Shown in pieces: positions 6,941 through 59,169 of a DNA stretch of 64,000 nt. Below the pieces are notes generated by a model. The model worked only from the letters and a program-made list of their open reading frames with translations, had not been told where the DNA came from and did not search any database. The stretch spans positions 2,164-66,163 of the forward strand of contig NZ_JANYGH010000024.1 of assembly GCF_025362475.1 (NCBI RefSeq), written 5' to 3'. Position 1 is the first letter of the stretch. The number at the start of each line of letters is the position of its first letter. The DNA comes from Mucilaginibacter sp. Lineage in GTDB: Bacteria > Bacteroidota > Bacteroidia > Sphingobacteriales > Sphingobacteriaceae. The translations under genes and the position numbers were made by a program.

Positions 6941-6961
6941 TTTTTGAAAACACAAAAACAC

Positions 6962-7591
6962 ATGATTATGCGGATGTATGAGGACTATCTGATGCTGCTA
7001 TCACCGCCCGAAACGGTGAAACAGGAAATTGCCCGCTACAAAAAAGCATCGGCAAAACTTATAGGTGATTTCAAGAGCATGGATTCGCCGGCACATATCT
7101 CTATTATGCACATGGAACGCCAGAAGCCGTTTATGGAAGATAGAAGTATGCAGATGATGGAAAGCAGCTTAGCGGCACTCCCTCCTGTGCTGCTGCATGT
7201 AGATGGGTTTAACTATTTCCCTCACCTGCATAACAAAATGACCATTTACGCCCATATCCGTTCTACACCATCGGTTGAGCAGTGGTTCAGGCATTTAAAG
7301 GCCGTTCTGAAGATTAAAAAAACACTTTTGCCCCATATTACTATTGCCAGGAATATCCCGGAGGATGACTTTAATATCCTTTGGCCAAACTTTAGGCAAA
7401 GGCACATGGTAGAACCATTTTGGATCAACGAATTAAAAGTTAAAAAACGCGAAACTTTTGGCTATTCGCCCAAATGGGAAGATTTTAAAACATTCCGATT
7501 TAAAAACCCCATTGGGTTTGAGCATCAAATTGATACACTTATTAAAAAACATATTCAACCGGGAAATCAAAATCAAATCAATCTTTTTTAA
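6962..7591 (+). CDS. 2H phosphoesterase / 2'-5' RNA ligase family protein
   Basis: Two HxS/T motifs (PAHISI, LPHITI); ATG 6962 preferred to TTG 6944. Confidence 0.8.
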   Translation: MIMRMYEDYLMLLSPPETVKQEIARYKKASAKLIGDFKSMDSPAHISIMHMERQKPFMEDRSMQMMESSLAALPPVLLHVDGFNYFPHLHNKMTIYAHIRSTPSVEQWFRHLKAVLKIKKTLLPHITIARNIPEDDFNILWPNFRQRHMVEPFWINELKVKKRETFGYSPKWEDFKTFRFKNPIGFEHQIDTLIKKHIQPGNQNQINLF

Positions 7592-7667
7592 ACCTAAACC
7601 TTATTACTACCATTTAAACCTTATCCCTACCATTATTTATTTTATTACTTAACCCTAAAATCACAAA

Positions 7668-8201
7668 ATGAAAAAAGTTCACTTAACACTGATGTTATTA
7701 GCCGGCCTTACAACATCAGTACTGGCCCAAAAATTAGAGAAACCTGAAATTGACAAGATCAAAGGCGATACAACCTGGAGAACTTCAGATGAGCGTATCT
7801 ATACCCAGCTTGGCCTTGTTACGGGGCGCTTGCTTTACGTGTACACACAAAAAATAGGCAAAAGCTATGTGCTTGCATTCAGATTAGATAATGTGAACGG
7901 CCCGCGTGTATTTTCGATAGGTCCGGCTGACATAACCAACATTAAATTTACCGATAACAGCGTTCTTGACCTTTCACCAACTGTTGGCGGCGATCCTCAT
8001 GTAAGTTATAATACGGAGGCCAACCGGGTTATTACCCTGATATATTACGATCTGGCAAAAGAAGATATAGAGACTTTAAAAACAAAGTCGATATCAATTA
8101 TCCGGATTGCGACCGAAGGCGCCGGAAACTTCGATTATGAGATAAAACCTAAAAATTCAAATCTGGTAAAAAAAGATCTGGAGTTAATATTGACAAAGTA
8201 A
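7668..8201 (+). CDS. Secreted hypothetical protein
   Basis: Signal peptide MKKVHLTLMLLAGLTTSVLA-Q; no recognised domain. Confidence 0.75.
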   Translation: MKKVHLTLMLLAGLTTSVLAQKLEKPEIDKIKGDTTWRTSDERIYTQLGLVTGRLLYVYTQKIGKSYVLAFRLDNVNGPRVFSIGPADITNIKFTDNSVLDLSPTVGGDPHVSYNTEANRVITLIYYDLAKEDIETLKTKSISIIRIATEGAGNFDYEIKPKNSNLVKKDLELILTK

Positions 8202-8753: not shown

Positions 8754-8761
8754 TATATTTG
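8754..8761 (+). promoter_or_regulatory. Bacteroidetes -7 promoter element for SRP RNA
   Basis: TATATTTG (TAnnTTTG) 5 nt upstream of the RNA. Confidence 0.75.
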
Positions 8762-8766
8762 CGCCG

Positions 8767-8862
8767 GGGTAAGTCTTTTACGGCCAGCTCCTCTTGAACT
8801 CCCCCAGGGTGGGAACACAGCAAGGGTAGAGAGTTGAGCGGCGCGATAAAAGTAGCTTACCC
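8767..8862 (+). ncRNA. ffs: Small bacterial SRP RNA (4.5S)
   Basis: Long hairpin GGGTAAG...CTTACCC with helix-8 signature CAGG-GTG-GGAA-CAC-AGCA; T-run follows. Confidence 0.9.
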
Positions 8863-8951
8863 TTTTTTATTTTTCTATTTTTGCCAATTGGCAACAGGCT
8901 TAAAACCTTTCCACAGGTTTTGCATTCTATCAAAGTCTTAATATAAATTAA

Positions 8952-57329: not shown

Positions 57330-57695
57330 TTAAAATGTCCGTCTTGGACGTTTTTTCTTTACAGAACCGTCTGGCTTCTCCACTTTGTGATAACCGGGTG
57401 ATTCAAAAGAGGGTTTGCTTGCAACAGGCGATGGCTTTTGCGCAGACGCTCTTTTATCCTCGGCTATCCTCACACTGAGCTGCCTGGTTTCTATCTCCAT
57501 ACCGTCAAAAGCGGCGATAGCCCTGTCTGCACCCGCCTGATCGGTCATATGAACAAAGGCATAGCCCTTGCTTTCACCTGTATCTATATCCGTAACAATC
57601 TTCACCATTTCTACCTGGCCTTCAGCCATAAACAACTCCAGCAGTGCAATTTCCTGCATAGTTCGTGGTATACCCACAACAAATAATTTTACCAT
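57330..57695 (-). CDS. RRM-domain RNA-binding protein
   Basis: RNP2 KLFVVGI, RNP1 KGYAFVHM, basic tail KKKRPRR. Confidence 0.9.
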   Translation of the reverse strand: MVKLFVVGIPRTMQEIALLELFMAEGQVEMVKIVTDIDTGESKGYAFVHMTDQAGADRAIAAFDGMEIETRQLSVRIAEDKRASAQKPSPVASKPSFESPGYHKVEKPDGSVKKKRPRRTF

Positions 57696-58220: not shown

Positions 58221-58611
58221 AGGTAAAACGCTAATTACTAAGCCTTTATTTATTCAACCAACAGCGTAGCTTAAACCCCCATAAAAATACTTATAGTCAA
58301 TAAAATAATAACCAATCACCTCATCAGTATACTCCCTAACAATTAATTGAAAGAAACCGTCGCCAACCTAAAAATACCTCTGCCATATAGGGGCAATTGA
58401 CTGTGGCCCTGGCCTGATGTTTGCCTAAAGCAGAAAAATTTAAGAATGCAATCTCATGCCTAAAAAAGAAACTTCCACTACTAATAAATAAATTTATTTA
58501 TTAAGAAATATGAAATGACTTAATAGTATACAAATTATAAATTTGGCAATTTTTCATCCATAACGATGGCCGTATTTTGATTTTTACAATTTGATTTTAT
58601 ATACTTACAAA

Positions 58612-58698
58612 ATCTATTAGGTAAGCATCCTGCTTACCATTGTGATAAGGTTTAGGTTTAAAGTCCCCGGCGGCGAGCGCTTAGGGGACTTTTATTTT
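58612..58698 (+). ncRNA. Candidate small RNA (hairpin - unpaired core - terminator)
   Basis: GGTAAGCA-TCC-TGCTTACC stem, core ATTGTGATAAGGTTTAGGTTT, AAAGTCCCC/GGGGACTTT stem plus TATTTT; TATACTTA -7-like box upstream; ends approximate. Confidence 0.55.
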
Positions 58699-58896
58699 GA
58701 TTTCGAATATTCTGCAATATGGTGTTGCCACAAAACCTTGTATTATTACACTTACTTTCAACAGAAATAATAAATACTGATCACATAAATTACCCGGTTG
58801 TTTTCGTAATTATTTTTTTTAAAAAAATTCGCTTTCCTGCCAGCAATAAAAAGTAATTTCGCCATCTGTTCATTCAGGATACTACTTAATTAATTT

Positions 58897-59169
58897 ATGT
58901 CTGCAGATAATTCCATTTCACCCGTTCAAGCTGACCTTGTCCAAATTATTTCTAAATATATTTTACTTGAAGAAAGCCGCAAACACTTAAAAGGGCGGTG
59001 CCCCTTTCATAAGGACCTGGCAACCTCATTAATGGTTTCTCCTGATAAAAATATTTTTCAATGCTTTGGCTGCGGCAAAGGTGGTGGCCCCGTTGAGTTT
59101 GTAATGGCAATAGAAAATAAAACACGCGAAGAAGCGATACATCTTATCGCCACACAAAAACCTTTTTAA
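58897..59169 (+). CDS. Stand-alone CHC2 zinc-finger (DnaG ZBD-like) protein
   Basis: CPFH...CFGC, GGGPVEFVMAIEN; stop after 90 aa, no TOPRIM continuation. Confidence 0.8.
   Translation: MSADNSISPVQADLVQIISKYILLEESRKHLKGRCPFHKDLATSLMVSPDKNIFQCFGCGKGGGPVEFVMAIENKTREEAIHLIATQKPF

Follow-up and report, generated by a model that had tools for sequence, protein, structure and literature searches.

In Bacteroides thetaiotaomicron, the FopS/GibS group comprises many paralogous small RNAs (sRNAs) of about 65–80 nt, which end in a terminator and have in common a seed located at the extreme 5′ end (PMC11697453). FopS targets the mRNAs of exported and outer-membrane proteins, pairing at the start codon or close to it, for example in the start region of SusC, and the RRM protein RbpB binds and counteracts the FopS sRNAs (PMC11697453). 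The ribosomes of the Bacteroidota are established to be independent of a Shine–Dalgarno sequence (also in PMC11697453). Here, we describe a spacer between two genes of Mucilaginibacter sp. (GCF_025362475.1), the first encoding a 2H phosphoesterase and the second a small secreted protein, which is complementary to the core of an sRNA family of the Sphingobacteriaceae. With a probability of roughly 0.7, we propose that this spacer is the leader of the secreted-protein gene and a multi-site target of the sRNAs, the effect of pairing being probably repressive and possibly also one of titrating the sRNA. The window analysed is a stretch of 64,000 nucleotides, positions 2,164–66,163 of contig NZ_JANYGH010000024.1, and the coordinates given are those of the window unless a contig is named. 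By analogy, FopS with RbpB is the closest worked example for the mechanism proposed.

Systems outside the Bacteroidota offer further points of comparison. In the ChiX (MicM) trap of Salmonella and Escherichia coli, a seed complement in the chbBC intercistronic region lets the mRNA act on the sRNA. GcvB of enterobacteria is a single-copy sRNA with a conserved, C-free, G/U-rich seed (also termed R1), the C/A-rich leader targets of which act as translation enhancers. RybB, MicA, MicL and CpxQ are envelope-stress sRNAs tied to the sigmaE and Cpx systems, and Qrr1–5 of Vibrio are near-identical sibling sRNAs with a small set of mRNA targets. To our knowledge, few regulatory RNAs have been characterized in the Bacteroidota, and essentially none outside the gut Bacteroides.

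A preliminary description of the window had reported an 18-bp exact reverse complementarity between TTTAAACCTAAACCTTAT (7587–7604, plus strand) and 58645–58662, and this was verified on the sequence. The stretch covers the TAA stop codon (7589–7591) of the 2H gene. With G–U pairs allowed, the predicted duplex grows to 21–22 bp (target 7586–7608, −27.8 kcal/mol), in line with the extension claimed earlier. The two further copies that had been noted are also present: TAAACCTTATC, 11 nt in length, at 7615–7625, and AACCCTAAAATCACAAAATG, which reaches into the ATG at 7668. Pairing at the last of these sites is divided into two blocks, ATCACAA with UUGUGAU and AACCCUAAA with UUUAGGUU. The spacer between the two genes measures 76 nt and is A/C-rich; both genes have the same orientation, and a search for a terminator between them found none. 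The leader is nearly structureless, with a minimum free energy of −4 kcal/mol over 141 nt. Because the spacer is short, same-strand and devoid of a terminator, the sites should belong to an mRNA, and the leader is most likely co-transcribed with the 2H gene. The extents and predicted strengths of the three sites are collected in Table 1.

A match of this length was judged improbable by chance in the preliminary description, and the genome as a whole bears this out. In the 6.45 Mb draft assembly of the source genome, the 18-mer has four exact occurrences, three in sRNA genes and one at the site near 7.6 kb. By our own estimate from base composition, the whole genome should contain by chance about 0.01 matches to any 18 consecutive nucleotides of the 24-nt core, and shuffled sequences gave 0.21 matches in the window even with up to three mismatches allowed. 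A genome-wide count of the 14-mer AACCTAAACCTTAT returned just eight copies, six of them inside sRNA genes, which rules out a high-copy element of untranslated regions (UTRs). In a scan of 5119 leaders, those of crudely called genes of the source genome, site 1 gave the best duplex with the core (−27.8 kcal/mol, against −23.8 kcal/mol for the runner-up). The match is thus most likely to reflect a real regulatory contact between two RNAs, and a chance match is disfavoured.

The site is also conserved. Eight leaders of close orthologues keep AAACCTAAACCTTA at a distance of 40–90 nt from the downstream ATG, between flanks that have diverged; besides the window itself, they are those of the genomes M. 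flavus, FT3.2 and G046 and of the metagenome contigs L095, L096, L097 and L098. Here and below, G000 denotes the source genome, C-numbers denote contigs and the other G- and L-labels denote the genomes and loci compared. A ninth orthologous leader (L099) has AAACCTAAACCTTA with one mismatch. A second island is conserved in the leaders of the eight orthologues, the start-proximal block TTAAC.CTAAAA..TCACAATG, which is likewise complementary to the core. More distant homologues place the motif at the start codon itself: in L048, a 41%-identical homologue located behind ssb, AACCTAAACCTTAT lies directly 5′ of the ATG and must be in the mRNA, since the whole spacer is only about 24 nt, and in L052, a second ssb-linked homologue, the motif stands at the ATG with one mismatch. 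Predicted duplexes of −16.7 kcal/mol or better are found in six of 16 homologue leaders, while 2.8% of all leaders reach −16 kcal/mol or better.

Duplication of the site has occurred independently in three lineages; the repeat period is 20 nt in the window, as against 39 nt in L095 and 29 nt in L098. The metagenome orthologue L095 carries two 23-nt sites of −30 kcal/mol each. Because these duplications are independent, the multi-site state appears to have been selected. The close orthologues alone leave it ambiguous which gene the site serves, a 2H paralogue being upstream of the secreted-protein gene in all of them. The ssb-linked homologues, which lack an upstream 2H gene, keep the motif at the ATG; the site therefore goes with the gene behind it, and the secreted-protein gene is the one likely to be served. 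The preliminary description had suggested a multi-site target or sponge lying both at the 3′ end of the 2H mRNA, presumed there to be SOS-linked, and in the leader of the secreted-protein gene. Position in the leader, conservation and the presence of several sites in several lineages all speak for the second part of this suggestion, whereas the part concerning the 3′ end of the 2H gene is weakened by the ssb-linked homologues.

The partner of these sites belongs to a family of which the source genome holds six full copies and one weaker copy, each about 80 nt in length, with a common core and differing hairpins. All follow the same plan: a copy-variable 5′ hairpin, a single-stranded AUUGUGAUAAGGUUUAGGUU(U/G/A)AA, a G+C-rich terminator hairpin and a U-tail. 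The terminator hairpin and U-tail are present in all copies, compensatory changes affect six of the 11 terminator pairs and the core is free of C. A covariance model, R1, built from the six full copies, matches all 24 Mucilaginibacter genomes (2–14 copies each) and 20 of 37 genera of the Sphingobacteriaceae, mostly as single copies, with expansion to 7–18 copies in one other genus; apart from one marginal match, R1 found nothing in 16 other families of the class. Across about 20 genera, the 19-nt sequence TTGTGATAAGGTTTAGGTT (also written UUGUGAUAAGGUUUAGGUU) is identical in 34 of 37 aligned copies while the stems change freely. A 5′ hairpin of 7–12 bp with variable sequence occurs in 33 of 36 homologues (median z = −4.5). 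Flanking genes and their orientations vary among the sRNA loci tabulated (47 of 50, three being skipped for want of the exact core). An invariant unpaired seed combined with covarying stems is, as judged from these alignments, the signature of a trans-acting sRNA. The discrete terminator-ended gene, the conserved seed and the conserved site in sense orientation in a leader agree with what is generally expected of such a putative regulator.

No Rfam 15 family corresponds to the sRNA, whether gathering or permissive thresholds are used, the best match on 58450–58760 scoring 19.7 bits against a gathering threshold of 50. The Bacteroides sRNA models in Rfam, among which FopS itself is possibly not included, gave no significant match to it. 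A literature search by organism, topic and core sequence returned no description of the sRNA, the letters of the core appearing only in unrelated primers. The sRNA family and its secreted-protein target are new; the kind of system is already known. As in FopS/GibS, multicopy sRNAs of about 80 nt from a member of the Bacteroidota share one seed, end in a terminator and face an unstructured leader on which translation would depend in place of a Shine–Dalgarno sequence. Unlike in FopS/GibS, the seed is internal, behind a 19-nt 5′ hairpin, the family belongs to the Sphingobacteriaceae and the top-ranked target encodes a small secreted protein and offers long complementarity at several sites, in contrast to a SusC start region. 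The seed resembles that of GcvB in being single-stranded, highly conserved, C-free and G/U-rich and in facing a C/A-rich leader target, possibly well upstream of the start, but there is no homology, no Hfq context and no evident amino-acid transport regulon, and the present sRNA is multicopy. With Qrr1–5 it shares the presence of several siblings with an invariant stretch of about 20 nt and a small mRNA set, whereas promoter type, chaperone and targets differ.

Some members of the family depart from the common arrangement. In another genus, locus L075 (G185:C16:191200–192900) contains five head-to-tail sRNA genes with a period of about 157 nt, an array that the covariance model missed because the terminator loop is longer there. 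A variant subfamily (L089–L092, all from one genus, with L078 and L088) keeps AUAAGGUUUAGGUU and differs in its 5′ sequence and 3′ hairpin; its members may be paralogues that have diverged and in which the edge of the seed has changed. ARAGORN found no tRNA or tmRNA beside the C8 copy. In the window, a 121-residue RRM_1 RNA-binding protein gene (57330–57695, minus strand) lies 0.9 kb from the sRNA. RbpB of Bacteroides is likewise an RRM protein; the proximity is possibly coincidental. About 200 nt downstream of the sRNA terminator, a 90-residue open reading frame (58897–59169, plus strand) contains only a DnaG-type CHC2 zinc finger (PF01807).

In at least ten other genera and on C44 of the source genome, what is presumed to be the ancestral sRNA lies 30–150 nt downstream of a same-strand operon for an extracytoplasmic function (ECF) sigma factor and its anti-sigma factor. 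The operon encodes an ECF sigma factor (Sigma70_r2 + r4_2, 193 residues) and a membrane protein of about 165 residues resembling an anti-sigma factor, for which the zf-HC2 match falls below the Pfam cut-off; a DUF2911 gene usually follows. No terminator was seen between the sigma operon and the sRNA in the other genera. The sigma gene is preceded by a conserved ECF-type promoter-like motif, TGTAACC-N16-CGTCA, and in most non-Mucilaginibacter genera (L058–L073) AAAAC(T/A)-N16-17-(C)GTT(T/A) was recognized, by eye and unscored, 40–60 nt upstream of the 5′ hairpin of the single-copy sRNA. The two motifs are similar in type and non-identical. At the dispersed sRNA paralogues of the source genome both motifs were missing, and the sigma motif was not found at the target either. 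The linkage suggests that the sRNAs may form the non-coding branch of a stress response of the envelope type. In this the ancestral copy is like RybB, MicA, MicL and CpxQ, resembling a 3′-end-derived or sigma-linked arm that would lower exported-protein synthesis; it differs from those sRNAs in that the sigma promoter motif is absent before the source-genome paralogues and the enrichment of exported targets is weak.

Table 1. Positions of the pairing sites, the sRNA, its paralogues and the flanking genes (window coordinates unless a contig or locus is named).
Feature	Position	Strand	Remarks
Pairing site 1 (distal)	7586–7608	+	Overlaps 2H stop codon; 60–82 nt 5′ of ATG; 18-nt exact complement 7587–7604; −27.8 kcal/mol
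Pairing site 2 (TTTAAACCTTATC)	7611–7626	+	Second unit of 20-nt tandem duplication; −15.7 kcal/mol, 14 bp
Pairing site 3 (start-codon-proximal; TTAACCCTAAAATCACAAA + ATG)	7646–7670	+	Interrupted core complement; pairing 7646–7667, −14.6 kcal/mol
Tandem duplication (origin of site 2)	7595–7634	+	Tandem Repeats Finder: period 20, 2 copies, 90% matches; consensus unit TAAACCTTATCACTACCATT
sRNA paralogue with complementary core	58620–58698	+	Covariance model 82 bits; no Rfam family
5′ hairpin of window sRNA	58620–58638	+	19 nt
Single-stranded core AUUGUGAUAAGGUUUAGGUUUAAA	58639–58662	+	24 nt
Terminator hairpin	58663–58689	+	
U-tail	58690–58698	+	
Full sRNA copies, source genome	C6:1581–1671; C52:750–840; C57:41860–41952; C44:58503–58593; C8:205333–205423; C71:60773–60863		C71 copy = window 58610–58700
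Weaker sRNA copy, source genome	C52:240755–240845		
Sigma-linked sRNA loci	G000 C44:58503–59865; L061, L062, L067, L069, L072, L018, L020, L022, L026, L030, L034		ECF sigma, G000 C44:58741–59822
Upstream gene	6944–7591	+	2H phosphoesterase/2′-5′ RNA ligase superfamily, 215 residues; PF13563
Downstream gene	7668–8201	+	177-residue signal-peptide protein, beta-rich; open reading frame sequence; likely regulated gene

For the 177-residue protein, no significant match was obtained in Pfam, in a sequence search of the PDB or with Foldseek against the PDB (AlphaFold model, predicted local distance difference test score 71). In a comparison of L048 and L050–L053 with the window and L037, L038 and L042, its homologues are always found behind same-strand genes of DNA/RNA-repair type; these are either ssb or, next to dinB, one to three 2H paralogues. 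About 560 nt downstream of the secreted-protein gene lies a Bacteroidales-type small signal recognition particle (SRP) RNA (8760–8866, plus strand; RF04183, 97.6 bits), which was the only match when the window was searched against Rfam.

In the mechanism that we propose, the spacer at 7586–7670 would serve as a leader with three docking sites: a strong distal one, its duplicate and a weaker one ending at the start codon. Since all six or seven paralogues expose the same single-stranded core between the 5′ hairpin and the terminator, each could pair with the leader. Pairing would coat the unstructured A/C-rich stretch needed for ribosome loading, with repressed translation of the 177-residue protein as the expected outcome. 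The 21–22 bp duplex would probably be cleaved and, given the length and number of the sites, sRNA would in turn be consumed by the mRNA. In this scheme we infer that both RNAs are transcribed, which way the regulation runs and how pairing acts at the ribosome.

The complementarity, the anatomy and conservation of the sRNA and the conservation and duplication of the site are matters of observation, and it is against these that the points weighing on the other side must be set. The strong site lies 60–82 nt upstream of the ATG, beyond the zone of direct ribosome block, and the start-proximal site is weak and interrupted. The distal site is absent from the 50–55%-identical orthologues L043 and L044, and the close orthologues that do keep it are non-independent samples. 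In leaders, exact target-sense k-mers no longer than 12 nt show no excess over shuffled sequences, and long matches elsewhere in the genome than at the 7.6-kb site are at the chance level. Signal-peptide-like N-termini are only modestly enriched among predicted targets (odds ratio 1.3–2.2). Finally, one of five core shuffles nearly equalled the real core in the positional test (257 versus 280 duplexes).

That test formed part of an energy scan of the leaders, in which strong duplexes were 3–5 times as frequent as with shuffles and the target ends peaked 2.7-fold at −5 to +5. Predicted start-region targets include surface and secreted proteins, with no clear SusC set. The genome-wide statistics are equivocal, and no wider regulon is claimed from the source genome alone. 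Other genera give better support: of 13 non-sRNA occurrences of the 14-mer inspected there, five belong to a 14–19 nt complement that abuts the start codon, in sense orientation and at unrelated genes; we estimate the random expectation for such abutment at less than 1%. Target-sense motifs were also observed directly before intrinsic terminators, at G000 C48:21858–21891 (minus strand), where two copies lie 8 nt past the stop codon of a 96-residue gene, at G000 C32:26668–26681 (plus strand) and in L094. These copies may serve as target sites in 3′ UTRs or belong to sponge-like transcripts. In two Mucilaginibacter genomes (L084 and L086) the 14-mer is read in frame as N-L-N-L-I towards the 3′ end of a gene that, judging by its sequence alone, encodes a putative TolC-like outer-membrane efflux protein; this could be a coding coincidence or a coding-region site.

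An alternative function for the intercistronic array would be that of a decoy or sponge that, upon induction of the transcript, mainly captures and destroys the sRNAs and de-represses their other targets, any regulation of the downstream gene being secondary. The duplexes are unusually long and perfect (18–23 nt, two each in the window, L095 and L098), the site near 7.6 kb is a single outlier among genomic complements and the terminator-adjacent motifs on C48 (two sites), C32 and L094 have a 3′ UTR-like position. As in ChiX–chbBC, the seed complement lies in the spacer of putatively co-transcribed genes. The differences from ChiX–chbBC are that there are two or three sites instead of one, that the extra block reaches the downstream start codon and that decoy action is only proposed. 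We consider a predominantly sponge-like role unlikely, given that the start-proximal complementary block is conserved too and that the sole site in L048 and L052 is at the ATG, which fits control of the downstream gene. The roles of sponge and target overlap, the difference being which partner is regulated, and the present data cannot separate them. A more specific form of this idea, in which the dinB-linked 2H operon is induced, for instance by DNA damage, and its transcript soaks up and destroys the entire family of ECF-sigma-linked sRNAs, thereby de-repressing genes for exported proteins, seems to us distinctly improbable. If it were true, the trap would couple a genome-stress signal to exported-protein de-repression, a cross-talk of two stress systems by RNA alone. 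We know of no sRNA sponge in the Bacteroidota.

Recognition of the site as DNA is a further alternative, whereby a transcription factor or an RNA-guided complex of the dCas12f–sigmaE type (PMC13472631) would act at a promoter of the secreted-protein gene. The distal sites do lie at a promoter-like distance, 40–90 bp upstream of the ATG, and the ancestral sRNA has an ECF sigma/anti-sigma operon as its neighbour. We nevertheless regard this as very unlikely: the distance between site and ATG varies from overlap to about 90 nt, the L048 spacer is too short for a promoter downstream of the site and a protein operator would not explain a complement in the single-stranded part of an RNA. The guide RNAs of dCas12f–sigmaE have a conserved scaffold and a variable guide at the 3′ end and are encoded beside dcas12f (PMC13472631). 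An sRNA of that type was rejected for the present family, in which the architecture is reversed, the would-be guide being invariant and followed by a terminator and the would-be scaffold being variable. No Cas12f/TnpB-like gene was found within about 1.2 kb of the sRNA, the conserved neighbours being the sigma, anti-sigma and DUF2911 genes.

Equally little credence can be given to a non-functional origin of the match, as an inverted relic of an sRNA gene or a low-complexity coincidence, which the count of expected matches (about 0.01 for 18 nt, by our estimate) already disfavoured. The motif is A/C-rich and internally repetitive, TAAACC occurring twice, and the lack of k-mer enrichment in leaders noted above would fit such an origin. 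Retention in eight orthologous leaders with diverged flanks, three independent duplications and the presence of the motif at the ATG of distant homologues all oppose it. A decayed minus-strand sRNA gene was considered at the site and rejected, as neither hairpin nor terminator is present there.

Regulation of the preceding 2H gene at the 3′ end of its mRNA, with pairing at the stop codon or 3′ UTR altering mRNA stability or termination, is hardly probable either: although in the window, FT3.2, L095, L098 and G046 the stop codon of the 2H paralogue is overlapped by site 1 or stands just before it, in M. flavus and L096 the site lies about 112 nt past the stop and 39–57 nt before the ATG, and L048 and L052 have ssb upstream and still carry the motif at the downstream ATG. 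A repeat of a site-specific inversion system was rejected, since other species have the site next to the same gene.

As a target in the leader of the secreted-protein gene, the spacer represents a solid lead with a conventional mechanism and not a new kind of system. The site near 7.6 kb provides a concrete first testable target for an undescribed, Sphingobacteriaceae-wide sRNA family with an invariant 19-nt seed. It also bears on whether the mRNA leaders of Bacteroidota act as sRNA sponges and, being distal and duplicated, offers a case for how far-upstream pairing controls translation without Shine–Dalgarno sequences.

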